Below are positions 11,975 to 57,344 of a stretch of 64,000 bases of DNA, in pieces. Numbering within the stretch: position 1 is the first letter of the stretch; every line of letters starts with the position of its first letter. The notes below the pieces were generated by a model, which did not search any database, had not been told where the DNA came from, and was given only the letters and a program-made list of their open reading frames with translations. Source of the stretch: an uncultured Pelagibacteraceae bacterium (GTDB lineage Bacteria; Pseudomonadota; Alphaproteobacteria; Pelagibacterales; AG-422-B15); assembly GCA_902577765.1 (NCBI GenBank), contig CACHAK010000001.1, positions 263,040 to 327,039 on the forward strand, read 5' to 3'. Made by a program: the position numbers and the translations under genes.

Positions 11975-11983
11975 GAGGATAAT

Positions 11984-12166: not shown

Positions 12167-12176
12167 ATAAATTCGC

Positions 12177-13655: not shown

Positions 13656-13670
13656 AAGTAATTAAAAGAA

Positions 13671-14216: not shown

Positions 14217-14222
14217 TCTGAA

Positions 14223-15515: not shown

Positions 15516-17044
15516 AACTTACCTTTCATAAATACGTATGAAGCTCCAAAGTAACAGATGCAAAACATTAGCAATATTAGAGAAACTGAATATGCTTCAT
15601 CCATCCTATAACTTCCCATAAGTCTATATATTGTTTGAGTTAGAGTTGACAAGCTATTCGTTCCAAAAAAGGAAATGATAGCGAGATCACTTGCAGATAG
15701 TATTGAAGATACTGAGAAAGCGGTAATTATTGGTACTTTTAGTCTAGGAAAATCAATAATTAGAAATCTCTGTAATCCATACATGTTGATACTTTTTGAA
15801 ATGTCTTCATTTTCATGCGTAACTTTAAAGTAAGACGGTGCTAGAAAGTTATATGTAAATGGCAGTGAAAAAATTGCGTTTAGAACGATAACAATAAGAA
15901 TATTCGGTATTTCAAACAAGCTGATTTTAAATAATAAAATATAATATCCAACAGCCATTGCAACTGGCGAAAATATAATAAGTGAATAAATCAATATTTC
16001 TGTAAAATATTTTTTGCGATAGATCAAATTAAGGTAGTTGAGAGCTACAAAAACTGAAATGGTTCCTGAAAAAAAACAAATCACAAATGTGTTATTTATT
16101 GCATGCCATATATATGATGTTGAAAATATATTTATTAGTTCATTATTGAATCCATTTAAGATTATGAAGCATATCGGAGAAAAAATGAAAATAGAAATCA
16201 GTATTATGCATACAATTTCAAAATAGAAAGAAAATCCCCTTTTTTTATTTTCATAAAAATTTCTTTGTTCATCAATTATAAAATTTGAACTTTTAAAATT
16301 TTTAAAGAAAGCAGCGTATATGAAAAGACATATTGATAATTGTATAAGTAATAAATTTAGGGCTGCATCAAAATCATTATTAAAAATTACAGAATAATAA
16401 ATTGCTACTTCTAAAGTTGAATATTTTGGACTTCCACCCAGAATTAAAACTGGGGTAAAGCTTACAAAGCATATAAAAAAGACAATAACAAAGAGACTGG
16501 GTATATTTTTTTTTATAATAGGCCATTCAATAGCAAAGAAAATTCCTAACTTGTCCAAAGACATTTGTTTTGCAAGCATATATTCATTTGAACTGATATC
16601 ATTTAGACTTTGAAATATAATTCTTGTTACTAATGGAGTGTTTAAAATTGTATGACCAAGCAACATGCCAATTATTCCATAAATAGAAAAATATTGTCCG
16701 TAAAATGTTAGGACTCCAAATACTGATAGTATTGTTGGCAATACAAATAAAATTGACAAAAAATTTACGATAAGTTTTATGGTTTTATGATGCCTGTGCC
16801 TTATTAATAAAAGTGCAAATACGGAACCTATTACTATAGAAAAAAAGGCAGAGGCAAATGATTGAAAGATTGTAAAAAAAATAATGGTAAAATAATAATT
16901 TGAGAAATTAAGTTTGAAACTAAAATTGTAATAATAAACTAAACTAAATACAGGCAACACAACTGCCGCTAAAACGAGAAAAAAAACTCCTATTGGAATT
17001 AGATCTTTTATATTAGCCTGCAATAGTCTCAAGCCAAGTTTCAA
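15500..17044 (-). CDS. thiP: Thiamine ABC transporter permease (exact start uncertain)
   Basis: Two fused permease halves, LGGSPKYSTLEVAIY; follows thiB behind a TPP riboswitch. Confidence 0.8.
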   Translation of the reverse strand: MKLGLRLLQANIKDLIPIGVFFLVLAAVVLPVFSLVYYYNFSFKLNFSNYYFTIIFFTIFQSFASAFFSIVIGSVFALLLIRHRHHKTIKLIVNFLSILFVLPTILSVFGVLTFYGQYFSIYGIIGMLLGHTILNTPLVTRIIFQSLNDISSNEYMLAKQMSLDKLGIFFAIEWPIIKKNIPSLFVIVFFICFVSFTPVLILGGSPKYSTLEVAIYYSVIFNNDFDAALNLLLIQLSICLFIYAAFFKNFKSSNFIIDEQRNFYENKKRGFSFYFEIVCIILISIFIFSPICFIILNGFNNELINIFSTSYIWHAINNTFVICFFSGTISVFVALNYLNLIYRKKYFTEILIYSLIIFSPVAMAVGYYILLFKISLFEIPNILIVIVLNAIFSLPFTYNFLAPSYFKVTHENEDISKSINMYGLQRFLIIDFPRLKVPIITAFSVSSILSASDLAIISFFGTNSLSTLTQTIYRLMGSYRMDEAYSVSLILLMFCICYFGASYVFMKGKLWNTH

Positions 17045-33599: not shown

Positions 33600-33647
33600 A
33601 GATGATAATTTTCATTATTTATTAGCAAATTGATTAGGGAGTCCAAA

Positions 33648-34991
33648 ATGAATCTATTGCTCAAAAAAACAGCACTATCTCTAACTGCTGTTATGACTTT
33701 TTTAATTTTCTCAATACCATCTTCAAATGCAGAAAGACTGTCTTCAATGGTAGAGCAAATATTATCTTCTCACGAAGACATTGTTAATTCCAAGAAAGAG
33801 GTTGAGGAAGCATCAAGAGATGTTACCGATGCACTTTTAGTTTATGCTCCTGACTTGTCAGTAAAATATGAGGCTGGTCAAAATGACAAATATAATGCCT
33901 CTTCAAATTCTCAAATAGATGGCTTTGACACTTTTGATTGGACTTGGAAACAGAAAATAATGGACTCAGGTGCTTCCATGGCAGATGTAAGAAATAAAAG
34001 AATAGCTTTAGAGAAAAAGGAACTTGAATTTATTTCTGCTCGTAATGATCTTTTAATTGAAGCTGCGGATGCTTATCTTGGATTAATTAAAGCATCAGAA
34101 AAATTGGAGGCATCAGTCGCAGCTGAAGAAAATACAAGACAAACAACTGGTCAGGAAGAAATCAGAGTTCAAGTTGGCTCTGGATTGGCATCGGATGTTT
34201 TAAAGGCAAAAAGACAATTAGCGAGTGCACAAAAAACAGTTATTACAGATGAAAAAAGTTTTAAATCTGCAATCTATACTTACGAAAAACTTTTTAATGT
34301 AGACGATGTTAATGTTAACAGTTTAACCAAACCTAGACTTGCAGCATCTACAATCTCGATGGTTCCAAAATCTATGGAGGCAACTGTTGTAATGGCATTA
34401 TCCGGAAATCGTGACTTACAAATCGCCAAAATTGATGTTGAGACCGCAAAAAATGATCTTGCTTCAGCTCTAGCTAATTTTGGCCCAACAGTTGATGCAG
34501 AAGCTAAATACTCAGATAAGAATGATGCCTCTCACACAGGAGGAAGTCATTATGAAGAGCAGATTAAAGTTACTGTGGAATTTCCAATTTCTGGTTTTTA
34601 TATGGAAATGCCAGGTTATTTAAACGATCGTTCTGCATTGGATAGAGCTATTAATGATTTAGCTCTGAAAGAACGTGATACAGTTAAAGCTGCAAAAGAT
34701 GCCTGGGTTGAGTATGCAAATGCAAGAACCATGCTTTCTTACAGTGAGAATGAGGCGACTATTGCTAAAGAACTTTTATCAATTGCTCAAAAAGAAAGAG
34801 CTGCTGATCAAACAGATGCTGCCGCAGTGCTAGCAGCTGAGGAAGCATTAGAAGGCGCTCTAAAAGATTTATCTGATGATAGCATGGCCCTACTAACAAC
34901 TGTGTATGAAATTTTAGATGTTATTAATTTGCTTGAGCCAGATATGGTTGAAGAAAGTGTAAGAGAAGGCACATTTAATACATCATCATAA
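33648..34991 (+). CDS. TolC-family outer membrane channel of a T1SS
   Basis: Signal peptide, duplicated OEP-type repeat (ADAYLGL...SDVLKA; DAWVEY...AAVLAAE); ATG 33648 after GGGAG; precedes substrate-ABC-MFP. Confidence 0.85.
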   Translation: MNLLLKKTALSLTAVMTFLIFSIPSSNAERLSSMVEQILSSHEDIVNSKKEVEEASRDVTDALLVYAPDLSVKYEAGQNDKYNASSNSQIDGFDTFDWTWKQKIMDSGASMADVRNKRIALEKKELEFISARNDLLIEAADAYLGLIKASEKLEASVAAEENTRQTTGQEEIRVQVGSGLASDVLKAKRQLASAQKTVITDEKSFKSAIYTYEKLFNVDDVNVNSLTKPRLAASTISMVPKSMEATVVMALSGNRDLQIAKIDVETAKNDLASALANFGPTVDAEAKYSDKNDASHTGGSHYEEQIKVTVEFPISGFYMEMPGYLNDRSALDRAINDLALKERDTVKAAKDAWVEYANARTMLSYSENEATIAKELLSIAQKERAADQTDAAAVLAAEEALEGALKDLSDDSMALLTTVYEILDVINLLEPDMVEESVREGTFNTSS

Positions 34992-35040
34992 CAACTTGAA
35001 AGGTAATATTTACGGTTATAATTTTAGAAAGGAATATTAG

Positions 35041-38000
35041 ATGCCAGTAACGCCAGCAGAAGCACAAGAGTTTTTTCAAGAGGTTGCCGCCGCAGGCTCT
35101 CCTGAGGAACAACAGGCATTAATACAAGATTATGCTGCCAATAATGACAATCCAGATGAGATGTTGGCAGCAGTCGTACAAGCCAATCCTGCTGCTGCTC
35201 AACAAATTGCAACCGTAACTGCACAGGCAATCCCAGAACAGGCAGCCGAAATTGCTGGCGCAATCGCTGCTGCAGCACCACAAACTGCTAATGCAACTGC
35301 CGCTGCAATGGCGAGTGCAGCACCTGATATAGCAGAAGACGTTGCTTCTGATGTTGTTCAAAATGCTCCAGCAGCTGCTGGCGCTGTCGCTGCCTCACTT
35401 ACTCAAATTAATCCAGAAGGTGCCGCTGAAATGGCTGCAGCTATTGCTGAAGTTGCTCCTGCAGCTGCGGGCGCTGTTGCAAGTGCTGTTGCACAAGCTG
35501 CACCTGAACATGCTGTAGATGCTGCTGCATCAATGGCCGCTGCTAACCCTGCTGCTGCAAGTGGAGCTGCAAGTGCTGTTGCTGCCGCTGATCCTGAAGC
35601 CGCTTCCCAAGTTGCAACTGCAATGGCTCAGGCCGCACCCGAAGCTGCCGCAGCTGTTGCTGCCGGAGTTGCATCTGGTGTTGCACAAGCTGCTATTGCA
35701 GAAGTTAATCAAGAAACCGCTCAAGAAAATGCTCAAGCTCAAGCAGATGCACAGTCCCAAGTAGCTGAAGTTGGTCAGGAAGGATTATCCGATATCCAAG
35801 GTGATTTACAAGAGACATTATTAGAAAACAATCAAGCAGGTCAAGAAGCTGCACTTGAAGCATCACAAGCTGCAACACAAGAAATTATTGCTGAAATGAT
35901 ACAAATGAATCCTGATGCTGCTGCTGAAATTATTGCCGGTACTGCTGCATCAAATCCAGAAGCCGCTGCTGAAATGGTTCAAGAAATGATGGCATCAAAT
36001 CCTGAGGGAGCTGTTGAATTATGTGCTGATATAGCTGAGGCAAACCCAGCCGCCGCTGCGCTAGCCACAGAAGCAATTATTGAAGCTGCTCCAGAGCAAG
36101 CAATTGAAGCAACCGCTGCCATGGCTGAAGTTGCACCTGCTGCTGCGGGAGCCGCTGCTGAAGTGATGGCAGAATTAGCGCCTGATCAAGCAGGTGATGC
36201 TGCAATTGCAATGCAAGAAGCTGCACCAGAAGCGGCTGCTGCAATTGCTGGTGGAGTTGCACAAGGTAATCCAGATGTTGCTGCAGATGTTGCATCAGAA
36301 ATGGCTGCTGCTGATCCTGAGGCCGCTGCCGATATTGCAACTGGAGTTGCTGTTGCTGCACAAGCAAATGCCGCTCAAGAAGTTGCCGCTGCTCAGGCTG
36401 AGGCACAGGCACAAATTGCTGAGGCAAGTGCAGACTTGCAGGCTGATTTAACATCTGACGATCCAAACGTAGTAGCTCAAGCTCAAGCGGCAATAGCTGA
36501 GGTACAAGCTGCTGCTCAAGAAACGATTGCTGAAGCGCAAGGTGCTGCAGCAGAAGTTGCACAAGAATTAGCTGGCGATATTGCTGGCGCAATGATGGAA
36601 GCCAACCCTGAAGCAATTGGAGACATCGCAGAACAAATCGCCGAGTCAGCTCCTGGAGCTGCAGAGGGAGTTATGGGAGCAATTGCAGAAGTTGCACCTG
36701 AACAAGCAGTAGATGCCGCTGCAACAATGGCTGATGCCAATCCTGCAACCGCGGGTGCTGCGGTTGGAGCAGTTAGTGAAGCTTTACCTGAATTAGCTAC
36801 TGAGGCTGCTGTCGCTATGGCTGAAGCTGCGCCAAGTGCTGCTGCAAATATTGCTGCAACTGTTGCTCAAGCCAATCCAGAAGCCGCTACAGAAATTGCA
36901 AGCGAAATGGCAGCTGTGGCTGCTGGAAATGAAAACTTTTCTCAAGATGAAGCATTAGCTATGCAAACTGCAATTGCAACACAAGTTGCAAGTGCGGCAC
37001 CTGAAGCTGCAGCAGAAGTTGCTGGAGCAATGGTCGAAGCTATGACGGCCGTTGACGGTAACGCAAGTGATGGTGCTCTCGCAGAAGCAGCTGCCGCAAT
37101 GACAGCAAACGTTGCATCTGCAGCAACTATTGCTGATCCAGAAGGCGCAGCTGAATTAGCTGGAACGATGATGGAGCAAATGGCCGAGATTCCTGGAATT
37201 GAACCTGAGGCCCTTGCTGAAACTGGTGCTGGAATGACTGCTAATATGGCATCTGCTGCTGTACAAGCGGATCCAGAAGGAGCTGCAGATTTAGCTGGAG
37301 CGATGATGGAAGTTATGGCTGACATTCCAAATGTACCAGAAGAATTTGATATGGCCGGGCAAATGGCTGATATGACAACTGCAATTGCTACACAGGCTAC
37401 AGCTGCTGCTCCCGACCAGGCTGCAGAATTAGCTGGAGCGATGATGGAGCAAATGGCTGAGATACCTGGCGCTCCTGCAGATTTTGACCCTGCAGAACAA
37501 ATGGCTGAAATGACAGCAAACATTGCAACTGCTGTTGCAGCTGCAGACCCTGAAGCCGCAGGTGAAATTGCAGGTCAGATGATGGAACAAATGGCTGAGA
37601 TACCGGGAGTATCACCTGAAGATATGGCGGACTTTAACGCTGACATGGCAGCACAAGTTGCGCAAGTTGCACCTGAAACCGCAGGAGAAGTTTTGGGAGC
37701 AATGGCTGCCGCTGATCCAGGAGCTGCTGCTGAACTAGCAACTGCAATGGCAGAAGCAAACCCTGCTGCGGCTGGTGAAGCGATGGCGGGACTTGCTGAA
37801 GCTGCACCTGAACTTGTCGCAGATGTAGCCGGAGCTGTTGCTGAAGCTGCACCGGAATTATCGGGAGCACTAGCTGCTGGAGTTGCATCGGGTAATCCAG
37901 AAATTGCTGCTGAAGCTGCTCTTGCATTAGCGGAAGCTAACCCTGATGCTGCTGCACAAATTGCTGCAAGCACTGCTGCTGCAAATCCAGAATTTGCTGC

Positions 38001-41000
38001 TGAAGTAACAGCTGCGATGGCTGACGCCAACCCAGACGCTGCGGCTGACATGGCTGCTGCTGTAGCCCAATTTGCACCTGATGCTGCTGCATCTGTTGCA
38101 TCTGAACTTATTTCTAATGACCCTGAAGCTGCGGGTGAACTTGCAGCTGCAATGGCCGAAGCAAATCCAGCTGCTGCCGGAGATATTGCTGGTGCATTAA
38201 TGGAGTCAGCACCCGAACAAGCTGTAGCTGCTGCTGCAGCAATGGCCGAGGCTAGTCCTGCTGCCGCTGCATCTGCAGCACAAGGCATGGCGGCTGTTGT
38301 AGCAGACGCTGGTTTCTTTGATGGTGGAAGCGCTGACATAGCAACTCAAGCCGCTGCTGCAATGGCAGAAGCTGCACCAGAAGTTGCTGCTTCAGTTGCT
38401 GCGGGTATTGCTAGTGGTAATCCTGAAATGGCCGCTGATGTTGCTGTTGCAATGGCAGAAGCTGCACCTGATTCCGCATCCGCAATCGCAGGTGGAATGG
38501 CAAGAAGCGCACCTGATGCTGTTGGTGATGTTATCGGAGCAATGGCCGATGCCAATCCTGAGGCTTTAAATGATATTGCAACAGGAGTTGCACAAATTGC
38601 ACCAGCTGCCGCTGGCGATGCAATGGCTGCTGTTGTAGACGCTAACCCTGAAGCTGCAGTTGCTGCTGCAACTGCAATGGCTGCCGCTAATCCTGCAGCC
38701 GCACAAGATATTACTGCCGCAATAATAGAAGTCGACCCTGGCGCTGCTGCGGATACTGCCGCTGCATTAGCAGAAGCTGTACCTCAAGCTGCTGGGATGA
38801 TTGCAGCGGGCGTTGCAGAAGCTGCACCTGAAGCTGCTGCTGATGTGGCTGGCTCACTTGCTGAAGCCAATCCAGCTGCTGCTGCGCTAATCGCTACTTC
38901 TGTTGCACAGGCTGCACCAGAACTTGCTGGAGATATTGCTGCTGATATGGCCGAGGTAAATCCTCAAGCTATGGCTGGAGCTGTTGCAAATATTGCAGCA
39001 ACCGTTGCTGCTTCAAATCCAGACTTGGCTGCGGATATTGCGGGAGATATGGCCGCTATTAACCCTAATGCCGCTGGAGCAATTGCAAATGTTGTTTCGG
39101 CTCAAGCTCCAGAAGCTGCAGCTGAAGCTGCCGCTGCTTTGATACAAGCTAACCCAGATGCTGCTGGAGCAATCGCCGCTGGGGTTGCTGCTCAAGCACC
39201 AGAGGCTGCTGCTGATGCTGCTTCTGCTCTGGTTGAGGCAAATCCAGATGCTGCCGCCGCTATTGTAGGTGGGATGGCAAATGCAAATCCAGACGCAGTT
39301 GCTGATGTTGCTGGAGCTATGATGGAAGCTGCACCGGAAGCTGCCGCTGCTATGGCTGGTGCTGTAGCGCAAGCTGCTCCTGAAATGGCGGGAGATATGG
39401 CCGCTGCAATTGCTGAGAGTAATCCTGAACTAGCCGTTGAGGCTGCTGCTGCTATGGCTGAAGCCAATCCTGCTGCTGCACAAATGGCTGCAGAAGGAAT
39501 GATGGAAGCTGCACCTGAGCTTGCTGCTGATGCAGCAAATGCAATGGCTGCTGCTGCACCTGAAGCTGCTGCTGATATTGCAGGTGGAATGGCAATGGCT
39601 AACCCTGATGCTGCCGCTGATATTGCTGGTGCGATGGTTGCAGCTAATCCTGATATTGCAGGTGATATTGCAACTGGTGTTGCTATGGCTGCTCCGGTTG
39701 CCATGGAAAATGTTGCAAATACTTTAATAGAATCAAACCCTGAAGCGACAGCGACGATGGCTGCGGTCCTTGCAGAAACTGCACCTGGTGCTGCTGACAA
39801 TATGATGAGTTCTGTTGCTGAATTAAATCCTGAAGCAGCATTGGCTGTTGCTGGTGCGATGGCTGAAGCAAATCCAATGGCTGCTGAGGGCACTGCGGGT
39901 GCAATCGCTGATGCATTGCCAGATATCGCTGCTGATGCAGCTGGTGCTATGGCTGCTGCTAATCCAGACGTTGCTGGAGATATTGCTGCCGGTATGGCTG
40001 GATCAAATCCAGAAATTGCTGGAGATATCGCTGGAGCAATGATGGATGCCGCTCCTGAGGCTGCTCAAGGAATTGCTCAGGGTATTGCTGCTGCTGCACC
40101 TGATCAAGCCGCTGAGGTTGCAGGGGCGATGGCTGAGGCAAATCCAGAATTTGCTGGTGATATTGCTGGAGGTATGGCTGCGGGAGATCCAGGACAAGCT
40201 GCTGATATAGCAACTGCAATGGCAGCTGCAAATCCTGAAGCTGCTGCTGATATTGCAGGAGGTGTTGCAGAGTTTGCACCGAGTGCTGCTGGAGATGTTG
40301 CGGGGGCGATGGTTGAAGCAAACCCTGAAGCTGCTACAGATATGGCTGCTGCGATGGCTGAAGCGAACCCAATTGCCGCAGGAGCTGCAATGGGAGCAAT
40401 GGCTGAAGCTGCTCCAGAAATTGCTGCAGATGCTGCAAGCGCAATGGTTGCTGCAAATCCAGATGCTGCTGGTTTAGCTGCGCAGAGTTTAGCAGATGCA
40501 GCTCCTGAATTGGCTGCTGATGCTGCAACTGCAATGATGGAAGCTGCGCCAGATGCTGCTGGTGCAATTGCCGGAGGAGTTGCTAGAGGTGACGCTGATA
40601 TTGCTGCTCAAGTAGCAACAGATATGGTTAATGCCAATCCAGAATTAATGGGAGATATTGCAGGAGGTGTTGCGCAAATGGCTCCTGGCGCTGCCGGTGA
40701 TGTGGCCGGAGCGATGGTTGATGCAAATCCAGATGGCGCTGCTGATATGGCTGCCGCTGTAGCTGAAAATGTTCCTGGTGTTGCCGGTGCTGTAGCTGGA
40801 GCTATAGCAGAAGCGGATCCAGCTCTTGCTGCTGAAGCTGCTGGTGCGATGATGGAAGCTAATCCCGCTGCTGCCTCTGCGGCTGCTGCAGGTATGGCCA
40901 ATGCAGCTCCTGAAGTTGCAGGTGATGTTGCGGGCGCCATGATGGAAGTTGCAATGGACCCTGAATTTGCAACAGACTTTGCAGAAAATGCAGCAACTGC

Positions 41001-48128: not shown

Positions 48129-49070
48129 ATGAAAATGTTATTTAAAATAGTTTTGATTTTATATTGGGTAACTCTGCCAGTATTTGCTCAGGTCATATTT
48201 GAGAACCAGCAAAGTGGCACTCCAACTGTATTTAAAGTAAAACCAACTGACATGAAATTATGTGAAGATTTTGATTTAACTACTGGCGAGTGTTCAGGCG
48301 ATAATGTCTTTACTTTTTTAAAAACAATGACAGCAGACAATGGAAGATGCGACATTGCTGGAGTTACCGAAAACTCAATTGCTTGTAATTACGGACCGAC
48401 TAGCAATATTCCACTAAACGTAACCTATAGTTATTCAAGAATAACTCTTGATAGGACCATGTGGTTAAAGGGGACTGTGAATAATGTTACAAAACAGTTT
48501 ACCTCTTCAGATAGTTGTCACACGAACTCTGCTAATACTCAAGCAGATGGATCTATTGCGTCAGAGGGATCTTTAACTGGATCTCCAACTACTCAGGCAA
48601 TTAAATTTACAAATGGGCCTGGTAACGAGGATTTTTTAGGGAATGGAAGCAAGTCCTCAGCAAATACAATAGATACCTATGGAAACACTTGTTATAACGA
48701 TAGCTCAAATCAAGGCTGTGCTTGGGGCAGTGTAACTACATTAGATACTTATGGTTCCACTGTTTTTGATGGAACAAACCCTTATCCAGCATCTGATTAT
48801 AGCTTTACTGCTAATTATACTACACCCCCCGGCGGTGTTTGGCAAAGTGGTCTTTCAACAAATGACGACACGTTGGTCATAATCTATAAGTTAACTACTC
48901 CTTTTACGAGAACAAATTCAGATATTGCGCCACTTATAACAATGTCATTTGATGTAACGGATGCTTTAGATGCACAATTTATATATGCTAATGAAGCTGG
49001 TAGTGATCCAATAGAGGCTTGCTCAATTTATATTGGTAATCCAGGTGTAAGTATTACGATATCTGAATAA
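48129..49070 (+). CDS. Secreted Thr/Ser/Asn-rich hypothetical protein with 8 Cys
   Basis: Signal peptide ending VFA; beta-rich composition; 5 nt after the barrel gene. Confidence 0.8.
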   Translation: MKMLFKIVLILYWVTLPVFAQVIFENQQSGTPTVFKVKPTDMKLCEDFDLTTGECSGDNVFTFLKTMTADNGRCDIAGVTENSIACNYGPTSNIPLNVTYSYSRITLDRTMWLKGTVNNVTKQFTSSDSCHTNSANTQADGSIASEGSLTGSPTTQAIKFTNGPGNEDFLGNGSKSSANTIDTYGNTCYNDSSNQGCAWGSVTTLDTYGSTVFDGTNPYPASDYSFTANYTTPPGGVWQSGLSTNDDTLVIIYKLTTPFTRTNSDIAPLITMSFDVTDALDAQFIYANEAGSDPIEACSIYIGNPGVSITISE

Positions 49071-49099
49071 GAGGTTGTTTAAAAATCAAAAAAATTATT

Positions 49100-49594
49100 A
49101 TGAAAATTCTTATATGTGGACTTCCCGGATCAGGCAAAACTTGGTTAGCAGAGAGACTTGTTCAAAGTATAGATAATTGTGCATGGTATAATGCAGATAT
49201 TGTAAGAACTGCGTCAAACGATTGGGATTTTTCAAATGAGGGTAGGTCTAGGCAGGCAATGAGAATGAAAACCTTTGCTGACTTCGAAAAAAATAATGGA
49301 AGATATGTAATATGTGATTTTGTGGCTCCGACAAAAGCCGCAAGAGAGTCTTTTGGCGCAGATTACTTAATCTGGCTTGATACAATTAAGGAAGGAAGAG
49401 TTGTAGACAATAAAAAAAAAGAATTAGAGAACTCCAAGGATCTTCCATTTGAAGTTGAAACGCTTGAGAATTCTCAAGCATTTAAAGATACAACTAATAT
49501 GTTTGAAGAGCCTAAAAATGCAAATAAGGTTATAAATAGTTTCATGAATGATCAGGAAATAGCTGCTTTGGCAAAAGAAATTACCAATGTTTGA
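49100..49594 (+). CDS. Adenylylsulfate-kinase-like P-loop protein
   Basis: GLPGSGKT, YNADIVR, DFSNEGRSRQ, VICDFVAPT, MFEEP. Confidence 0.7.
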   Translation: MKILICGLPGSGKTWLAERLVQSIDNCAWYNADIVRTASNDWDFSNEGRSRQAMRMKTFADFEKNNGRYVICDFVAPTKAARESFGADYLIWLDTIKEGRVVDNKKKELENSKDLPFEVETLENSQAFKDTTNMFEEPKNANKVINSFMNDQEIAALAKEITNV

Positions 49595-49982
49595 TTGGAA
49601 AAAGCCAACATCTCAGATGCTTGGCCGTTGGCAACCTTGGCATAAAGGCCATACGGAGCTATTCAAAAAAGCTTTAAATTTGTCAGGTCAAGTATGTATT
49701 ATGTTTAGAGATGTTTCTGGAGTTGACGCTGGAGTTGATGGTCAGTCAGATAACCCATTTGAGTTTGAAGAAGTAAAAAAACGTATAATTAACAGTCTTG
49801 AATTAGAGGGATTTAAAAATGAAAGAGAATTTGTTGTAATTAAGGTACCAAATATAACTAATATTTCATATGGCAGAGGAGTAGGTTACACATTTACAGA
49901 GCACGACCTCGGAGAAGAAATCCACAAAATTTCAGCTACAAATATTCGTAAAGAAATGAGAGATAAGGATGAACTAGATTAA
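49587..49982 (+). CDS. Small HxxH nucleotidyltransferase (cytidylyltransferase-like)
   Basis: GRWQPWHKGH, NPF, ISATNIR; 8-nt overlap with the kinase. Confidence 0.8.
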   Translation: MFDWKKPTSQMLGRWQPWHKGHTELFKKALNLSGQVCIMFRDVSGVDAGVDGQSDNPFEFEEVKKRIINSLELEGFKNEREFVVIKVPNITNISYGRGVGYTFTEHDLGEEIHKISATNIRKEMRDKDELD

Positions 49983-50329
49983 AATATTGTTGCTCCAAAT
50001 ATTTTTATTTCTCCATCTTCTACACCTAAAACTAACCTTCCTAAATAATCACCATCTGAAATAGTACTTTTTTGCTTAAACAGTGCAGTAACATTTCCAT
50101 CTCTTCTAATACATCCGAGAAATTCATTTTCTTGCTTTAAATTTGTTATAACCTCGTTGTTTGCCCATTGTTTTGCAAGTTCAATTTCATTCGCTCCAAA
50201 AAGCATTCTTGCTGAAAAATCTTTTGTAAACCCAAAGTAATCTTGGGAATTTGAGCAATTAATCAAATTATTCCAGAGGGGAGTGGCAATTTCTAAAATT
50301 TCCTTATCAGATTTTTGAAGAAGGTCCAT
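49979..50329 (-). CDS. Hypothetical protein directly downstream of aprA
   Basis: ATG immediately follows the aprA TAA; 116 aa. Confidence 0.7.
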   Translation of the reverse strand: MDLLQKSDKEILEIATPLWNNLINCSNSQDYFGFTKDFSARMLFGANEIELAKQWANNEVITNLKQENEFLGCIRRDGNVTALFKQKSTISDGDYLGRLVLGVEDGEIKIFGATIF

Positions 50330-52165
50330 TTAGTCGACAAGATTATGCATTGGAGCCTTATTCATAGTAAATTCACCTGTATCCCTGTCTCTTTGTGAAA
50401 CAGTCAAACAGTGCCAATTTGCATCATCAATTTTCATGTGATCACCACGATAGTAATACCCAGGCCATCGTGTTTCTTCCCTGAACAATGTATGACTCGT
50501 CACGCACTGAGAGGTGGTAACTCTATGCTTTAATTCCCAAGCTCTCATAAGCTGGTGGTAATCTTCTGCGGCTACATGCTCTAAATCTTCTTCAAGCATC
50601 TTTAGAAGATTAGTCCCAATTTTTAGCAAGTTATCATTTGTCATGTAAGAAACTCCAACACCTCCTACATACTCATCCATTATCTTTTGTAAGCGTTGAA
50701 GTCCTTGAATTGGAAGAATATAACTTGGAGATACTGTGCCAGCAGTAATTTCATTTCTTCCAACTTTATAATTTTCAAGAGGCTTATAAATAACTTCTTT
50801 TAAATCTTCATATTGTTTGTCAGTAACCTTAATTTCTTCACTTTGCATATCATTTACATATTTAACAGCAGCTTTTGCAGCAAGACGTCCCTCAGTAAAT
50901 GATCCTGAAGAAAATTTATGTGCACTTCCACCAACAGTATCTCCTGCTCCAAATAATCCATTGACACTTGTCATCCTGTTGTATCCCCAGAAATAATCGC
51001 TTGGTGAAATATCCTCTGGACCACTAACCCAGGCTCCGGAACAAGTAGCGTGTGAGCCCATTACATACGGTTCGGATGTAGTGAGTTCAGGATTAGTATA
51101 TTTTGGGTCAATGTTCTGAGATGCCCACACAACAGCTTGACCAACTGTCATGCCAAGAAAGTTCTCCCAGCCAACTGTTTCCATGTGAGGATCTTGAAAC
51201 GCTTCTTTGGTAACCATGTGAATAGGCCCACGTCCAGCTTTTACCTCTTCAATAAATGCATGGTTTCTTAAACAAGTTGGTACAGGAACATGATCAATAT
51301 ATTCGCCTACAAGTTTTTTAGTTTCTTCGTACCATTTTTTTTCATAATTTTCCCCGTTACCGTTTTCTGTGTAAGTTTTAAGATGTAAAAAATAAGCACC
51401 CACTGGTCCGTAACCATCTTTAAACCTTGTCAGAACTATTCTATTTTCCATTTGTGTCATTTTGGCTCCAGCCATAATAGGAAGAGCGTATGCTGAGCCA
51501 TTACTCCATGGCGCATACCAAGTCCTTCCCATTCCTTCACCAACAGCTCTTGGTTTGAAAATATGAGATGCTCCTCCTGCAGCCACAATAACTGCTTTGG
51601 CTTTAAAAACATGGTAATTCCCTGTTCGCATATTGAAACCAACAGCACCACCCACTCGGTCAGATTTACCTTCATCCATCAGAAGATGAGTGATCATTAT
51701 TCTATTGTAAATTTTATTAGCTGATTTTTTTGCAGCCTCAGCTACAATAGGTTTATAACTTTCACCGTGGATCATTATCTGCCATTTGCCCTCCCTTTGG
51801 TACCTGCCTGTTTCTTTGTCTCGCATGATTGGCAATCCCCATTCATCGAACATATGAACAGTGGAATCGACGTGTCTTGCGATATCGTATGTGAGATCCT
51901 CTCTAACTAAACCCATTAGGTCATTTCTGGCATATCGGACATGATCTTCTGGTTGATTTTCATCCCATTGCATTCCCATGTAGCAATTTATAGCGTACAG
52001 TCCTTGTGCTACTGCGCCGCTTCGATCAATATTTGCTTTTTCAACACATACTATTTTAAGATCTCTGCCCCAATGTCTTGCTTCAAAGGTAGCGCCTGTT
52101 CCAGCCATTCCACCGCCGACAATGAGAATGTCACAATCCTCATGAATTGTTTTAATTGAAGCCAT
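50330..52165 (-). CDS. aprA: Adenylylsulfate reductase alpha subunit
   Basis: GGGMAG, RSGAVAQGLYAINCY, WQIMIHGESYK, GHKF-like AHKFSSGSF, EETRWPGYY. Confidence 0.97.
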   Translation of the reverse strand: MASIKTIHEDCDILIVGGGMAGTGATFEARHWGRDLKIVCVEKANIDRSGAVAQGLYAINCYMGMQWDENQPEDHVRYARNDLMGLVREDLTYDIARHVDSTVHMFDEWGLPIMRDKETGRYQREGKWQIMIHGESYKPIVAEAAKKSANKIYNRIMITHLLMDEGKSDRVGGAVGFNMRTGNYHVFKAKAVIVAAGGASHIFKPRAVGEGMGRTWYAPWSNGSAYALPIMAGAKMTQMENRIVLTRFKDGYGPVGAYFLHLKTYTENGNGENYEKKWYEETKKLVGEYIDHVPVPTCLRNHAFIEEVKAGRGPIHMVTKEAFQDPHMETVGWENFLGMTVGQAVVWASQNIDPKYTNPELTTSEPYVMGSHATCSGAWVSGPEDISPSDYFWGYNRMTSVNGLFGAGDTVGGSAHKFSSGSFTEGRLAAKAAVKYVNDMQSEEIKVTDKQYEDLKEVIYKPLENYKVGRNEITAGTVSPSYILPIQGLQRLQKIMDEYVGGVGVSYMTNDNLLKIGTNLLKMLEEDLEHVAAEDYHQLMRAWELKHRVTTSQCVTSHTLFREETRWPGYYYRGDHMKIDDANWHCLTVSQRDRDTGEFTMNKAPMHNLVD

Positions 52166-52169
52166 CTTT

Positions 52170-52634
52170 TTAGTTGATCCCTTTTTGATTATCTTTCTTT
52201 AGACTTGGAAGACCTGTTTCAATATTAAGTCCATTAGGTTCTGAGTAAAGTAACTGTGAATCTATTTCCTCATTTGTTGGAGGCGTTTCATCAGCAAGAT
52301 TTGGAATATGTTTACCCCAAGGTTTAGTTGTAATAGGCGATACAAAATTTTTTTCGTGACCATTTCGGAATTTTATTCTCCAAGATATTGTGCCTTTTTC
52401 TTCCTCTCGTAAAACCCTTACCTTGTGGTGCATCGGCGCAAAGTCAGCGTAGCCTCTTGCATCTATAGCATTTTGAGGACAGGCTTTTACACATGAATAG
52501 CATTCCCAGCACATGTTAGGCTCTATATTTACCGCGCGTCTTGTTTCTTTATCAATATGCATAATGTCTGATGGACATATATCTACGCAATGACCACAAC
52601 CATCGCATCTTGTCATGTATACAAATGTTGACAT
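52170..52634 (-). CDS. aprB: Adenylylsulfate reductase beta subunit
   Basis: CDGCGHCVDICP and CWECYSCVKACP; WRIKFRNG. Confidence 0.97.
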   Translation of the reverse strand: MSTFVYMTRCDGCGHCVDICPSDIMHIDKETRRAVNIEPNMCWECYSCVKACPQNAIDARGYADFAPMHHKVRVLREEEKGTISWRIKFRNGHEKNFVSPITTKPWGKHIPNLADETPPTNEEIDSQLLYSEPNGLNIETGLPSLKKDNQKGIN

Positions 52635-52673
52635 ATATTTTCCTCTTCTCGTTTCCTAGTAAATCAGTTTTTG

Positions 52674-53462
52674 TTAATAATGCCTAGGCGATTCTCGTTT
52701 AATTCCAAGTCCAAATTGCTTTGGTGCATCAGCTGGGGCAGGTAAGTCATCCCTATACCCGTCAGCCTCAGATAAATTCTTTTGAATTGCTGCACCTGGT
52801 TTGTAAAACATGTGAGCAAATTTCGACCAATATACACCACCAAACAATAAAATATTAGATAGGCCAAAGAGAACTAAAAACAAGATATCTAGTATTGGAA
52901 CCCCTGACGACTGAGTAAACGACCAAGCTAATCCAGAGGTTGCTGCAGCTAAAAGCGATAATACAAAAAGATCTGCTCTTATTATTCTATTCCACGGATT
53001 TGCCTCAGCAGAGACATCAACTCTTAAGAAAAACCAAAACCAATAACCTCCTAGACATGTCATTATAGCCCCAACATGCCATAACAATGATAGTTGATAG
53101 GGAGCGGGTGAATTAGTATATCCAAATATTAAGATAACAGAAGTAATCCAAAATAATATCGAACCGTACATACCTAAAAGGTGAGCAACTCTTCTTTGCC
53201 CTCTACCTAATTCTGAAGTTGTTAGAATATCGTTAGCAATTGTCTTGCTGATAATTTTTGCCTTTTGAGCGCCACTTAATTCATTTGTTGCAGAAGCTTT
53301 TGCTCTTTTAAAATTAATGAAAAAATATTTTGCATTCTTCTTAAGCACCATATCCACTAAAGTACCTATTGCAACCATCAGTATCATTACAACTACAAAG
53401 CCTTGTAACGCAATGGCGGGCACAAAAGTAATAAGTTCTTCGAAAGGATTTATATAAATCAT
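52674..53462 (-). CDS. aprM: APS reductase membrane anchor
   Basis: NPF, KYFF, RRVAHLLGMYG, GGYWFWFFLRVDV, WSKFAHMFYKPGAA, FGLGIKRE; upstream of aprBA. Confidence 0.9.
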   Translation of the reverse strand: MIYINPFEELITFVPAIALQGFVVVMILMVAIGTLVDMVLKKNAKYFFINFKRAKASATNELSGAQKAKIISKTIANDILTTSELGRGQRRVAHLLGMYGSILFWITSVILIFGYTNSPAPYQLSLLWHVGAIMTCLGGYWFWFFLRVDVSAEANPWNRIIRADLFVLSLLAAATSGLAWSFTQSSGVPILDILFLVLFGLSNILLFGGVYWSKFAHMFYKPGAAIQKNLSEADGYRDDLPAPADAPKQFGLGIKRESPRHY

Positions 53463-53515
53463 AAGTATCAATTCACTATAACAGAATCTATAAATAATAA
53501 CTATTATTTATACTT

Positions 53516-54451
53516 TCAAGGCAGAGGTTTAGTTTCAAATCTATTATATAATCGTCTCAAATTTGAAACTTTTTGTATGTCTTCTCTTAGATTTTTCGTG
53601 CCAGAGTCAATTGTTTCTGAATTGAATTCGATAATACAACTGGTAAAACTTTCACGATTTTTTAAACGGGAATAGTAGTCTCTTAAATTGTCTAATTTTT
53701 CAGTGAATAGCTCAACCAAATTAACTTCATCAAGTCTGTGTAATAATGTCATCCAGGTTATGTCTGCAATACTAAACTTATCCCCATCAATCCAGATCTT
53801 GTTCTCTAAATGACTATCTAACGAAGTTAAATGTGATTTAAGATTCTCAAATGCTTTTATAGCAACTCTTTGATGTGGAGAATTTTTATTAAAGACTGAG
53901 TAGCCTAATAGTCGATATAAAGTAAAATTAAGCGCTCTAAACTTTGAAGGATGCTTTATAAAATAATTAAAAAATTTAAAGAAACTAATTTTTCTAAGCA
54001 TTGCAACAAACAATGGTTGAGTAAGTAAGGATACGCAATTACCGGCGTAATCTTTTACCCCACTAACTGGGTCATCTCCAACTAACGAACCTTTTTTATT
54101 CCAATAATCAACTACTTCACTCTCCCCAAGTTTATTTGGAAAAGTTTCCATTAAATATCTTATTTGTTCGTGAGACTCATAAATAGGCTGATTGTTATGT
54201 AATAGAACTGGCACAGTTGCTTTTGGATTAATTCTAAGGAAATCTTTTGATAAGTTTTCACAATCTTTTGTCTCAATAATGTGTACATGAACCGGCAGGT
54301 AATCAATTTTATATTCCTCAAGACATATTCTTACTTTGCGAGAGCAAAGTGAGAAGTTGTTATGATAAAGCACCCATTCAGAATTTGAGTCTGATACTGT
54401 ATATTTTTGTTTACCCGTAAGATCTTTATTTTTAGGATTCTTTTTCTTCAT
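53516..54451 (-). CDS. Glutathione S-transferase family protein
   Basis: SLCSRKVRICLEE, INPKATVPVL, YES, FSIADI. Confidence 0.88.
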   Translation of the reverse strand: MKKKNPKNKDLTGKQKYTVSDSNSEWVLYHNNFSLCSRKVRICLEEYKIDYLPVHVHIIETKDCENLSKDFLRINPKATVPVLLHNNQPIYESHEQIRYLMETFPNKLGESEVVDYWNKKGSLVGDDPVSGVKDYAGNCVSLLTQPLFVAMLRKISFFKFFNYFIKHPSKFRALNFTLYRLLGYSVFNKNSPHQRVAIKAFENLKSHLTSLDSHLENKIWIDGDKFSIADITWMTLLHRLDEVNLVELFTEKLDNLRDYYSRLKNRESFTSCIIEFNSETIDSGTKNLREDIQKVSNLRRLYNRFETKPLP

Positions 54452-54803
54452 CCCATACTTTGTTTAGTAATTGACTGGCTGAAACTGCTGTAGGGAAACC
54501 ACTATAGTGAGCAACATGCAATATCATTTCTTCAATTTTTTCTTTCGTTATTCCTAAATTTTTAGCCCCTCTTAAATGAGATTTTAATTCATTCTCTCTA
54601 TTAAGTGCTACCAAAACCGTGAGCGTAATCATACTTCTTTCTTGAAGCGATAACTGCTCAGTTCGTGACCAGATTGTTCCATACAACATATCAATTATTT
54701 GCTTTAGCAAATCTTTAGAGACAGGAGTTTCATCATTCTTAAGTAAATCCATCTTCTTAAGGATTTCTAATCCTTTTTTTCTATCTTGATCATCTAATGG
54801 CAT
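54432..54803 (-). CDS. Carboxymuconolactone decarboxylase family protein
   Basis: YGTIWSR...LSLQERSMITL...HLRGAKNLG...HVAHYSGFP. Confidence 0.88.
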   Translation of the reverse strand: MPLDDQDRKKGLEILKKMDLLKNDETPVSKDLLKQIIDMLYGTIWSRTEQLSLQERSMITLTVLVALNRENELKSHLRGAKNLGITKEKIEEMILHVAHYSGFPTAVSASQLLNKVWDEEKES

Positions 54804-54833
54804 TTTTATATTTTACTCCTTAATAACAGTGTT

Positions 54834-56445
54834 TCAATTAAATTCAATTTTCTCTCTAATATTAAATAATACATTATTAATAATAGTTTCAAGACTATCG
54901 CTTTTATCAAAGTTAAATAAATCAAAAATATATTTATCAGGTCTTAAGATAACTCCAGAACAACCAAACTTTTTACAGTAAATTTGTAAATCTTTATGAG
55001 TTTCTTCACACGCAATGTACCCCTCATAGTTTGAATGGTTATAATTGTGAGTTACATTAATGATCTTAAAGTTATGTTTTTTTAAAAGTTCAAGGTTATC
55101 CTCTGAAATATTTTTATTACCTTCAAAATTATTTAAAATAATCCCAAAATTCTTTTCGAGCACATAATCTGTGCTCATAATTCTGCCATCATGAAGACGA
55201 ACATTTATCTCATTGAAGTAATATCTCTCAATTGAAACATTTTTAATTTTTGGCATTTTATGAACACCGGGTCCTAAACGGTTGCCATTTAAAACAGGAA
55301 ATATATTTTCTTTACCTCTTAAATAACTTTGTGTCCTTAGCAACGCATTCCTAATAAATGCTTTAAATTTACTTTTGGCATTAATGATTCCTCCCATTTT
55401 AATTGCCCCTCTAGTAATTCGAGCGACGTGCGGCCTTCTTTCAGATTGGTAGGTATCTAATATTTTAGGTGAGTAAAGTCCATTTAGTACTCCATTAATT
55501 TTCCACAATATATTTTCAGCATCTCTACATCCAGAATTCATTCCTTGACCCATAAAAGGAGGCATTTGATGTGCTGCGTCACCGAGTAGAAAGATATTTT
55601 CATTTTGCCATTTAACAGCATCGGCCGCGTGAAATGAGTAAACTGCTGTTCTGCTAAATTCAACTTCATTATCTCCGATCCATTGGTCTATGTATTTCCT
55701 AAAAACTTCTTCCTTTTGAATTTCATCAACAGTATCACCCGGCATAAAGGCTATTTCAAATCTAAAGCAATCATCAACCCCTTGAATAATTGTTGTTGGT
55801 CGTGACGGATTGCAATATTGAATCGCATCTATATCTGTGAAACAGTCAAATTTACTTTTCGTATACCCGTCCACCACCATCCAGGTCTCATCAGCATCTA
55901 AACTTTTAAGTTTAACATTGTTGAGTTTTCGAATTGTACTATTTGCTCCATCGCACGCCAAAAGATACTTACTGCTTGTTTTAAACTCTTCCCCGGTTTC
56001 AATATTCTTGTATGAACAATTCACAACGCCATCTGATTGATCAACGCTTAGAATTTCATTGCCTGTTTTAATCGTATTAGTCTGATATTTTTTTTGCATT
56101 TTCTCTATGAGCTTCATCAAATTGAGGTTGGTGAATGAACAGTATTGAATGTTGATAATTATATGTATCAAAACCATCCATTGTAATTTTTAAAATTGAT
56201 CTTTTCTTAGCATCTTTATTATCAACACCTCTAATTTTTCTCGTCTTCACTTTAGTTAGAAAGTTACAATGAGCCATTGCCCTTTGGCATTCAGCATCCC
56301 ATGTAATTGCTCTCGGTAAGGGGAAGGTTTCTTTTTCTTTATCTAAGATTAAAGCTTTAATGCCATAATAACCTAGCAAGTTTGCGCAAGTTTCACCTAC
56401 TGGTCCATACCCGGCTACAATGACATCATATTCAGTATCACTCAC
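54834..56445 (-). pseudogene. MhpA/PcpB-like FAD-dependent aromatic monooxygenase, split by a frameshift
   Basis: GYGPVG and PRAI in ORF 56077..56445; ACDGANS and GDAAHQMPPFMGQGMNSG in ORF 54834..56177; removing one A from the A8 run (56088-56095) gives one 536-aa frame. Confidence 0.85.
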
Positions 56446-56450
56446 GCGAC

Positions 56451-57344
56451 TTAGTATGCAGGCGTATCTTCTGGCTCTTCAATAACTTTATTGCTAATGA
56501 AGCCCAGTTTTTCAATTTCAATTTTAATTTCATCACCTGCTTTAAGCCAATTTCTTGTCATCACTGCAGATCCAGCCGGTGTACCAGTCGGAATCAAGTC
56601 TCCAGGTTCTAGTGTAAAAGCAGTTGATAAGTACTCTACTAATGTAAAACAGTCAAAAATTAAATCACTCGTCGAAGCAGACTGTCTTAATTCACCGTTT
56701 ACATATGTTTCAAGCTTTAGGTCATGCGGATCACCAATTTCATCACTGGTCACAATATAGGGACCAAAAGGACAGTGGGTATCCCATGACTTACCCATAG
56801 TCATTGTCATAGGAGGACCACGCATCTGCCAATCTCTGATTGTAACGTCGTTAACGACAGTATAACCATAAATAACTCCAGCTGCTTTATCATACGGTAC
56901 GTGACGACATTTTTTTCCAATAATGAAACCAAGTTCGCCTTCATAATCTAAAAATTCTGAAGCACGTGGACGATGAATTTCATCGTATGGACCGTTAACA
57001 GAGCTATTTTGCTTGTTAAATATATTTGGATATTTTTCTTGAGCTTTACCTATTGTTTTTGCAGCTGTCTGCGCAACTTCATCTTGATGTTCTTTATAGT
57101 TTAATCCAACAGCAAGAATTTTACTTGGTTTTGCAATAGGAGCTTCTAAATGTACTTTGCTTATATCAATTTTATTTTCACTTTTTTCAATAAGGTTTTT
57201 TGCATTAGCTAGACCTTGATCCCCAAGAGCGATAAAATCGATCATGTTGTTAGGTAATGAACTATTTGAGAAATCAATTATATGTTCTCCATTTATCGCG
57301 CCAATGGATGTAGTGCCATTAAATGTAAAGGTAACTAATTTCAT
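56451..57344 (-). CDS. Fumarylacetoacetate hydrolase family protein
   Basis: ILAVGLNY, DYEGEL, YTVVNDVTIRDWQ, GKSWDT, TGTPAG. Confidence 0.93.
   Translation of the reverse strand: MKLVTFTFNGTTSIGAINGEHIIDFSNSSLPNNMIDFIALGDQGLANAKNLIEKSENKIDISKVHLEAPIAKPSKILAVGLNYKEHQDEVAQTAAKTIGKAQEKYPNIFNKQNSSVNGPYDEIHRPRASEFLDYEGELGFIIGKKCRHVPYDKAAGVIYGYTVVNDVTIRDWQMRGPPMTMTMGKSWDTHCPFGPYIVTSDEIGDPHDLKLETYVNGELRQSASTSDLIFDCFTLVEYLSTAFTLEPGDLIPTGTPAGSAVMTRNWLKAGDEIKIEIEKLGFISNKVIEEPEDTPAY

Follow-up and report, generated by a model that had tools for sequence, protein, structure and literature searches.

What becomes of adenosine 5'-phosphosulfate (APS) in SAR11, the most abundant heterotroph of the surface ocean? 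Every pathway reconstruction for these bacteria stops at APS, with sat and cysDN missing (PMC5069961; PMC10356861). The question is raised here by a pair of small genes in a 64,000-nucleotide stretch of contig CACHAK010000001.1, positions 263,040 to 327,039 (the window). Its source is a member of the Pelagibacteraceae (SAR11); related loci lie in species-representative genomes of that title, the closest at 91-95% protein identity. The pair encodes a P-loop kinase homologous to the APS kinase CysC, which we call kin, and a small nucleotidyltransferase of the HxGH superfamily, which we call NT, and it converges on the aprM-aprB-aprA block, which encodes APS reductase (AprBA).

Gene neighborhoods and gene fusions suggest that the kin-NT module very probably belongs to the metabolism of APS, 3'-phosphoadenosine 5'-phosphosulfate (PAPS) and 3'-phosphoadenosine 5'-phosphate (PAP). 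Beyond this, we tentatively propose, at somewhat less than even confidence, that the NT of about 120 amino acids (aa) represents a third class of sulfate-activating enzyme beside Sat and CysDN. With a CysC that lacks its active-site lid, it would form the smallest known PAPS synthase. The module would supply SAR11 with the step from APS to sulfate and ATP as well as with PAPS for surface sulfation, and NT would be the other half of the viral 'cysC', so that many marine phages would carry the complete module.

Two overlapping genes converge on the apr operon

The genes at the center of this analysis are arranged as follows, with coordinates in the window.

49100-49594, plus strand: kin, 164 aa, P-loop kinase, lid-less CysC homologue
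49587-49982, plus strand: NT, 131 aa, HxGH nucleotidyltransferase, candidate APS/sulfate adenylyltransferase
49979-50329, minus strand: orf116, conserved 116-aa protein, last gene of the aprM-aprB-aprA operon
50330-52165, minus strand: aprA, APS reductase alpha subunit (FAD); TIGR02061 991 bits, cut-off 642
52170-52634, minus strand: aprB, APS reductase beta subunit, two 4Fe-4S clusters; TIGR02060 193 bits, cut-off 136; Pfam APS-reductase_C 106 bits
52674-53471, minus strand: aprM-like membrane anchor, 265 aa, so called from its position, its hydrophobicity and a weak similarity to the QmoC C-terminus

An earlier reading made from the letters alone (the sequence-only reading) had noticed overlapping genes for a CysC-like kinase and a 131-aa protein with the motif GRWQPWHKGH, and we confirm both at the coordinates listed. 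Their overlap of 8 nt (ATGTTTGA) indicates translational coupling. The pair is real and not a product of chance open reading frames, with 7992 and 6385 homologues scored for the two genes. Both genes are transcribed, with DNA carry-over possible: kin and NT are covered by contigs from four marine metatranscriptomes, and one contig crosses the kin/NT junction. In these contigs aprA depth is high and word depth over kin and NT is about 10-50x below that of aprAB, although contig depth is a poor measure.

The same reading placed the end of the pair 350 nt from aprA. The aprA gene is genuine, and the distance from the NT stop to the aprA stop is 347 nt, but this stretch is not intergenic: it is occupied by orf116, which had been overlooked. 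orf116 starts directly after the aprA stop (TAAATG), and its own stop overlaps that of NT by 4 nt (49979-49982). A promoter and terminator scan of 47900-53700 found no terminator between the convergent genes and fewer promoter-like sites than in shuffles, and is uninformative. With NT and orf116 overlapping at their stops and no terminator-like hairpin between the units, the convergent transcripts would overlap.

The pair is linked to aprMBA in some lineages and to cysQ in others

We surveyed gene context in the best 80 species-representative genomes bearing NT. NT lies beside aprMBA in 50 of them, convergent as in the window in 36 (kin> NT> <orf116 <aprA <aprB <aprM, arrowheads giving the direction of each gene) and divergent in 14. 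In the latter the apr operon is found on the opposite side, divergent from kin, and in 10 of the 14 cysQ converges on orf116. That two arrangements exist means that the linkage outlived a rearrangement.

In 29 further genomes NT is directly downstream of cysQ, with no apr within 10 kb. The order is cysQ-kin-NT in 27 of these, where the gap between cysQ and kin is 12-15 nt in most cases and about 30 nt at most, and cysQ-NT, free of kinase, in the other two (L049, 9135-10402; L051, 4866-6033). The last two loci indicate that NT can be retained with CysQ alone. The remaining genome has a cysQ remnant of 35 aa, and in none of the 80 does NT stand alone. The identity of CysQ was checked on one locus (L060, 8792-9583), where the protein scores 287 bits against the TIGR01331 cut-off of 229, with the HisN and SuhB models far below their cut-offs. 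Across SAR11, kin and NT are conserved at 75-95% identity. That the pair has stayed linked to two different APS/PAP enzymes despite rearrangement argues strongly for a functional connection.

Sat is recognized by the motif strings QxRNPxHxxH and GRDHAG. These strings, the CysD motif SGGKDS and the canonical CysC-lid motifs are absent from all six frames of the window, and Pfam scans of its larger open reading frames returned other families, with no Sat or CysDN. Together the two scans rule out a hidden Sat or CysDN in the window and bear out the earlier statement that it holds no sat. Sat or CysD motifs were likewise found in none of about 180 fetched loci. According to published work, sat, cysDN, cysH and cysIJ are absent from SAR11, where presence or absence of 'cysC' is identical to that of aprA in 7 genomes (PMC5069961, whose supplements have no cysC or aprA entries), and ATP sulfurylase is missing from most SAR11 (PMC10356861). 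The aprAB genes, for their part, are core in SAR11 and among the genes under strongest purifying selection (PMC12636525).

NT is fused to APS kinases in both orders

A search of 1.8 billion representatives clustered at 50% identity returned 1067 relatives of NT. Among the best 150 of these are 19 fusions with the kinase N-terminal and NT C-terminal, plus 4 partial ones. Fusions of NT to this kinase are spread over many lineages. A single representative (P0319) has the opposite order, NT followed by CysC, and stands for a large marine family, which comprises no fewer than 120 clusters at 90% identity, many of them found in Tara samples. The NT half of the NT-CysC fusions is 46-47% identical to the NT of the window. 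Their other half is a canonical CysC, with 219 bits in Pfam and 247 bits for TIGR00455 (cut-off 139), and the lid RDPKGLYKKAR is present. By sequence, the partner of NT in fusions is always a kinase of the APS-kinase lineage, whether lid-less or canonical.

The NT-CysC proteins are 309-312 aa long and are annotated only as 'adenylyl-sulfate kinase' or 'CysN/CysC' (loci L081-L087 and L181-L184). They lie on marine contigs of about 33% GC, one of them from the single-cell (SAG) assembly GCA_003209955.1. In the literature searched, no paper proposes that NT is a sulfurylase or remarks on the NT-CysC family.

The layout found here mirrors that of a PAPS synthase, with an adenylyltransferase-type and a kinase gene in one operon in the window or in one polypeptide in the relatives; the activity of NT is putative. 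We consider it an evenly balanced proposition that kin-NT is a minimal, split, translationally coupled PAPS-synthase-like module. The sequence-only reading had suggested a split sulfurylase/kinase module of this kind. Its link to sulfur nucleotides is upheld by the apr, cysQ, fusion and sulfotransferase contexts, whereas the substitution for Sat stays conjectural, NT having no detectable similarity to the Sat family.

In all, three fusion loci have sulfotransferases nearby. Some NT-CysC loci encode, beside the giant RTX protein, a Sulfotransfer_1 protein of 230 aa with the motifs PRSGTT and RDPRD or, alternatively, a TPR-sulfotransferase. One surface-glycan cluster contains a fused kin-NT gene and, two genes ahead of it, the gene for a probable sulfotransferase. 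The match of that protein to Sulfotransfer_3 spans its full length but, at 21.9 bits, stays below the gathering score; its motifs include GRTGSDYL and IRDPRANLKS.

The NT-CysC island is itself conserved. An MFS/PTR2 transporter gene lies upstream on the opposite strand, and genes for a 655-667-aa repetitive lipoprotein and a 1660-2192-aa RTX protein lie downstream. Most variants include TPR/2OG-Fe(II) oxygenases, and two include sulfotransferases. The 659-aa protein that follows NT-CysC was considered as a sulfotransferase and rejected, as it is a repetitive lipoprotein.

kin is a divergent homologue of CysC

The Walker A motif of kin, GLPGSGKT (residues 7-14), is invariant in the family. Against Pfam APS_kinase (PF01583) kin scores 31.4 bits, above the gathering score of 21.1, in a match limited to residues 3-84 and half the model; it falls far below the NCBIfam cut-offs for CysC (TIGR00455, 25.8 against 138.7; a second CysC model, 28.9 against 127). 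Its best sequence match in the PDB is APE1195, a probable APS kinase (E 7e-8). The AlphaFold model (pLDDT 82) matches a sugar kinase best, then APE1195 and many APS kinases at TM 0.65-0.72, and a gluconate kinase is found as well.

A profile of 14 diverse family members can be aligned with canonical CysC domains from end to end (hhalign 98.9%, E 1e-17), except that the lid is deleted. The alignment retains the catalytic Asp, the Arg-Phe-Arg acceptor triad, the xFxxP strand and the C-terminal F...P motif. Where CysC has the acceptor pattern GFSxxDRxENIRR and the strand (I/F)xSP, kin of the window has DFSNEGRSRQAMRM and DFVAP. The Phe, Arg and Pro of the acceptor site are conserved and aligned by hhalign, and ENIRR is replaced by RQAxRM. 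Because kin is homologous to CysC and can be exchanged for canonical CysC as the partner of NT, it would make PAPS from APS, and we judge a role as APS kinase to be likely.

NT belongs to a new small family of the HxGH superfamily

The motifs of NT are GRWQPWHKGH (nt 49623-49652), DNPF, VPNI, YGRGVGY and ISATNIR. A corresponding signature is constant in all contexts, namely GR(W/F/Y)QP(W/F)HxGH, NPF, PNI, YGR(D/G)VGY and ISATxIR, with YGRDVGY in most relatives. Within it H19-K-G-H22 is invariant, but the motif is common to the whole nucleotidyltransferase superfamily and hence not specific.

GRWQPWHKGH and ISATNIR are the equivalents of GRFQPFHxGH and SGTxIR, motifs of the archaeal-type nicotinamide mononucleotide adenylyltransferase (NMNAT/NadM). 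NT matches the CTP_transf_like and NMNAT models weakly, far below their cut-offs. Its scores with the archaeal-type models (TIGR01527, NF002243) are 20.5 against 181.2 and 27.7 against 127, 5- to 15-fold below the cut-offs, and the alignment covers only about 80 N-terminal residues. At 131 aa, NT is some 40 residues shorter than the matched NMNAT chains of 168-181 aa, and we take the missing segment to include the part that binds nicotinamide mononucleotide (NMN). A Foldseek search with the NT model returned only NMNAT, phosphopantetheine adenylyltransferase (PPAT) and pantothenate synthetase, at E >= 4e-3 and with no Sat in the top 50, and is not discriminating.

From its motifs and length, NT is best described as a distinct new small family of the HxGH superfamily, neither Sat nor a bona fide NMNAT. 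The human ATP sulfurylase (hPAPSS1) also relies on an essential HxGH motif (PMC11697783). Whether NT is a sulfate adenylyltransferase is, in our estimate, a question with even chances on either side.

A proposed route through APS

We infer the substrates of NT and kin, and the direction of flux, as follows. AprBA, whose direction is taken from the literature, would convert sulfite from organosulfur catabolism and AMP to APS. NT would catalyze the reversible ATP-sulfurylase reaction, APS + PPi <-> ATP + sulfate. We assign this reaction on four grounds: HxGH chemistry, fusion to canonical CysC, linkage to cysQ and apr, and the lack of Sat and CysDN. kin would produce PAPS by phosphorylating APS at its 3'-OH. 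APS in this SAR11 would have two fates, discharge by NT to sulfate and ATP or conversion by kin to PAPS.

The SAR11 hypervariable region encodes sulfotransferases (bioRxiv 10.64898/2026.04.03.716430), and the sulfotransferases of this surface-glycan region would consume the PAPS. CysQ, encoded elsewhere in this genome and adjacent in sister lineages, would return PAP to AMP, the co-substrate of AprBA. Where Apr is lacking, in other lineages and in phages, the pair would work in the forward direction and convert sulfate by way of APS to PAPS.

Phage relatives

IMG/VR contains at least 592 relatives of NT at 60-68% identity, with kin directly upstream in 74 of the 80 loci inspected, and no relatives of AprA were found in IMG/VR. 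The kin/NT family is not apr-specific. The sequence-only reading had asked for co-occurrence with aprBA and named an apr-independent distribution as speaking against the sulfurylase idea. The linkage is seen in the 50 genomes described above, but the phage relatives are without apr, as are 30 of the 80 genomes within 10 kb (29 with an intact cysQ). With these phage and cysQ-only occurrences, the distribution goes about halfway towards refuting the idea by that yardstick.

The contigs are those of genuine phages, in which the pair, or its fused form (PHROG 10255), sits among genes for UvsX, DnaB, ThyA/ThyX, DHFR, clamp loader, SSB, PolA and UDG-like proteins. Layouts include DHFR-kin-NT-ThyA, UvsX...kin-NT...DnaB-ThyX and ParB-methyltransferase...kin-NT...UDG-like-PolA. 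Phage loci with the pair or the fusion include the following.

L128: 7101-9262
L107: 6235-10423
L171: 8001-8789
L185: 4115-4921

On T4-like contigs the pair is found near 2OG-Fe(II) oxygenases and neck and terminase genes, and one fused copy adjoins Erv1/Alr genes. Only 12 isolated phages carry the family (of Xylella, Stenotrophomonas, Xanthomonas and Clavibacter), annotated 'kinase'. In Xylella phage Sano (L177; record 11616-16143) the fused kin-NT is gp35, a 'kinase' by annotation, and its gene follows those for a 'cysteine dioxygenase' and a MazG-like pyrophosphatase at a distance of a few genes. Among viral proteins, the 'APS kinase' of Ralstonia phage phiRSL1 is the best match by fold. 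Auxiliary metabolic genes are often placed in the early or replication modules of phages, and the viromics literature already names viral 'cysC' as a sulfur auxiliary metabolic gene.

Points that weigh against the proposal

Several observations count against NT as a sulfurylase and kin as its APS kinase. For NT, the nearest models are archaeal-type NMNAT/NadM, PPAT and cytidylyltransferases, there is no match to the Sat family PF01747 at E <= 0.01, and the AlphaFold model is poor (pLDDT 67).

For kin, the CysC lid RDPKGLYKKARxGEIKD, about 20 residues, is deleted in the family, and the remark in the sequence-only reading that the kinase lacks the canonical DPKGLY lid is borne out by hhalign. 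The CysC motif DGDN(I/V)R reads NADIVR in kin of the window, where D33 and R36 never vary and Asn replaces the first Asp in almost every member; the family motif is NAD/NGD where CysC has DGD. Mutation of both Asp residues of DGDN inactivates human APS kinase (PMC11697783).

Exactly at the lid position, kin of the window has an unrelated, charged 27-aa insert (residues 101-127; 49400-49480). This insert is specific to Pelagibacteraceae, is absent from HIMB59-like, phage and fused versions, and is modeled at pLDDT <50.

Distribution adds further points. Phages, without apr, are the family's largest reservoir, and it is not obvious how sulfate activation would explain the placement of the pair in their replication modules. 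Strain HIMB59 is reported to have cysDN (PMC5069961), which means that a relative of NT could be redundant in some genomes. In SAR11, AprBA could supply kin with APS without a sulfurylase, so that NT would not be strictly required. Finally, a crude scan for 5'-PSB and 3'-PB motifs, together with tblastn using two sulfotransferases, found no sulfotransferase in the window or the SAR11 loci, and its absence from the window belongs among these points.

Alternative explanations

The alternative that survives best, although we consider it unlikely, keeps the pair in sulfur-nucleotide metabolism and gives NT another reaction. NT would be an enzyme of the APAT type (APS + Pi -> ADP + sulfate), would act on PAPS or PAP, or would adenylylate another anion, and kin would be a 3'-kinase of APS or of an adenosine-5'-phospho-X. 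The linkage to apr and cysQ, the CysC fusion and the nearby sulfotransferases fit this explanation equally well. The kinase-free cysQ-NT pairs (L049, L051) favor it, as do the lack of Sat-family similarity in NT and the fact that AprBA can already provide APS in SAR11. Against it stand loci without AprBA. NT-CysC fusions and phage kin-NT pairs have no apr and no Sat or CysD motifs in the flanks that were fetched (+/-10 kb and +/-8 kb, respectively), so something must make APS there. HxGH enzymes, moreover, typically take a nucleoside triphosphate and release PPi.

Less probable is a generic pairing of a kinase with a nucleotidyltransferase for a phosphorylated small molecule, activated in the style of CDP-glycerol, CDP-choline or ADP-sugars, that decorates surface glycans, secreted giant proteins or phage DNA and virions, with the sulfur genes as incidental neighbors. 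NT has the size of TagD-type cytidylyltransferases and a weak CTP_transf_like match, and the sugar kinase and gluconate kinase among the fold matches of kin point the same way. So do several contexts: the fused kin-NT within an O-antigen or nonulosonate-type cluster, phage copies near UDP-glucose dehydrogenase and epimerase genes, and the SAR11 copy adjoining type I secretion genes and the gene for a giant protein. A generic module leaves unexplained, however, the fusion to canonical CysC, the position of cysQ directly upstream in 29 genomes, the aprMBA linkage in 50, and the Arg-Phe-Arg/F...P pattern of APS binding that runs through the whole domain of kin.

Less probable again is a split, NadR-like module of NAD(P) metabolism, in which NT would be an NMN adenylyltransferase in truncated form, kin would phosphorylate nicotinamide riboside or NAD, and the CysQ-like protein would be an NADP phosphatase; in phages the pair would serve to replenish NAD+. 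Such a module would account for GRWQPWHKGH and ISATNIR, for the archaeal-type NMNAT/NadM proteins at the top of both the sequence and the fold matches of NT, and for a weak match of the PHROG NMNAT model. NadR likewise joins an NMNAT to a P-loop kinase, and NAD salvage suits phage replication modules. The NMNAT scores are nonetheless 5- to 15-fold below cut-off and NT is about 40 residues short, kin is a homologue of CysC, and the CysQ neighbor passes the CysQ equivalog cut-off. The fusion to canonical CysC, the apr linkage and the neighboring sulfotransferases would remain unexplained. The sequence-only reading had itself offered an NMNAT/cytidylyltransferase pair unrelated to sulfur as its alternative, which ranks low given that NT is fused to CysC and linked to cysQ and apr.

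We hold least probable a phage-derived module that serves DNA replication or the metabolism of nucleotides (by modifying bases or nucleotides, for example, or in counter-defense). It would have been domesticated, or simply inserted, at the edge of the SAR11 hypervariable island and would adjoin apr by history. In its favor, replication modules from very different types of phage carry the pair extremely often, NT of SAR11 and of marine phages is 60-68% identical, and in the window the pair marks the boundary where a variable island of type I secretion and giant-protein genes gives way to the conserved apr block. Against it, the apr linkage is kept in two arrangements across families and the cysQ linkage in a third lineage, the genes are transcribed and conserved at 75-95% across SAR11, and a replication-module position says little about function where auxiliary metabolic genes, viral 'cysC' among those already listed for sulfur, are common.

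None of these last three explanations can account jointly for the fusion to canonical CysC and the linkage to cysQ and apr.

The apr operon and flanking genes

Both aprA and aprB score above their equivalog cut-offs, and a hydrophobic 265-aa protein is encoded next to them. That protein matches NF038018 (qmoC) at 27 bits over residues 22-225, far below the cut-off, and we infer its identity as AprM. The gene is syntenic with aprBA wherever a locus reaches that far.

orf116 follows aprA in every genome locus that extends beyond the end of aprA, in both arrangements. It is conserved 3' of aprA in Pelagibacteraceae and in the HIMB59-like lineage, including the 10 genomes in which cysQ converges on it. 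No match was found in Pfam, NCBIfam or PDB sequences, relaxed E-values included. orf116 may be an unrecognized accessory subunit of the AprMBA system.

Upstream of kin lies a variable island (window 33630-49070), which includes the following genes.

33630-34991: TolC-like outer-membrane efflux protein (OEP)
35041-44217: 3058-aa Ala/Pro/Met-rich repetitive protein, about 52% GC against about 33% in the flanks
47050-48123: inverse-autotransporter beta-domain protein

An ABC/HlyD type I secretion pair and a 314-aa orphan belong to the island as well. HlyD and ABC genes are found just 5' of kin in those Pelagibacteraceae loci that reach far enough upstream, and single-cell assemblies frequently end 4-5 kb upstream of NT.

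On the other side, the minus strand continues after aprM (53516-57344) with genes for GST-like, carboxymuconolactone-decarboxylase (CMD)-family, FAD-monooxygenase and fumarylacetoacetate (FAA)-hydrolase-family proteins, which look like a small aromatic or ring-cleavage cluster. A sulfatase-family protein is encoded 4 kb past the apr operon (57419-59122, plus strand; Pfam Sulfatase 149 bits), a further sulfate-ester-related gene in a genome unable to assimilate sulfate.

Implications

The kin-NT pair is a concrete, cloneable candidate for a missing step in SAR11, a gap that the literature states explicitly. If the proposal is true, it would offer an explanation of how the sulfotransferases of the phage-receptor glycan island in SAR11 could be supplied. 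Should NT be a sulfurylase, calls of pathway completeness for sulfate activation in marine metagenomes would be systematically wrong, the NT-CysC family would be a mis-annotated PAPS synthase, and the very common viral 'cysC' genes would encode a two-step sulfate-activation module.

Comparison with known systems

A close parallel is the PAPS synthase (human PAPSS1/2; the SAT/APS kinase of Aquifex aeolicus, PDB 2gks), which likewise combines an HxGH adenylyltransferase that cleaves between the alpha and beta phosphates with a P-loop APS 3'-kinase. The fusion orders among the relatives mirror those of PAPS synthases, kinase-NT corresponding to animal PAPSS and NT-CysC to the bacterial and fungal forms (PMC11697783). 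The differences lie in the parts. NT is NMNAT-like and about 120-130 aa long, without a PF01747 match or the strings QxRNPxHxxH and GRDHAG, and has no space for the extra N-terminal domain of Sat. kin lacks the lid and the first Asp of DGDN, and in the window the two genes are separate, with an 8-nt overlap.

Compared with CysC (PF01583/TIGR00455), kin shares Walker A, the catalytic Asp, Arg-Phe-Arg, the xFxxP strand and the C-terminal F...P, but has the lid deleted (replaced by the 27-aa insert in SAR11), has NAD/NGD for its motif and falls below the NCBIfam equivalog cut-off. The signs for membership in CysC are mixed, and the pair is better treated as a variant of the known systems than as a member of any. 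NT finds its closest relative in the archaeal-type NMNAT/NadM (TIGR01527, NF002243; PDB 1f9a, 2qjt), with which it has GR(F/W)QP(F/W)HxGH, NPF and IS(G/A)TxIR in common. It differs in being shorter, in its own YGR(D/G)VGY motif and in its partners, which are CysC-type kinases, cysQ and apr instead of NAD genes.

The locus also resembles the oxidative sat-aprMBA pathway, in that AprM-AprBA adjoins the proposed enzyme for APS -> sulfate + ATP, and its AprBA is of the type with an AprM-like anchor (PMC2211403; PMC10356861). Unlike the sat-aprMBA loci of sulfur oxidizers, it has no canonical Sat: the candidate substitute is from another family and comes with a kinase, and orf116 ends the apr operon. 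The phage versions, for their part, differ from the window pair in being usually fused, annotated as kinase only and without apr or cysQ neighbors in the loci inspected. They are nevertheless the same two-domain family, which takes in the PHROG 10255 'kinase', the viral 'cysC', gp35 of Xylella phage Sano and the phiRSL1 'APS kinase', and the PHROG 10255 profile (230 positions) matches kin with its first half and NT with its second.

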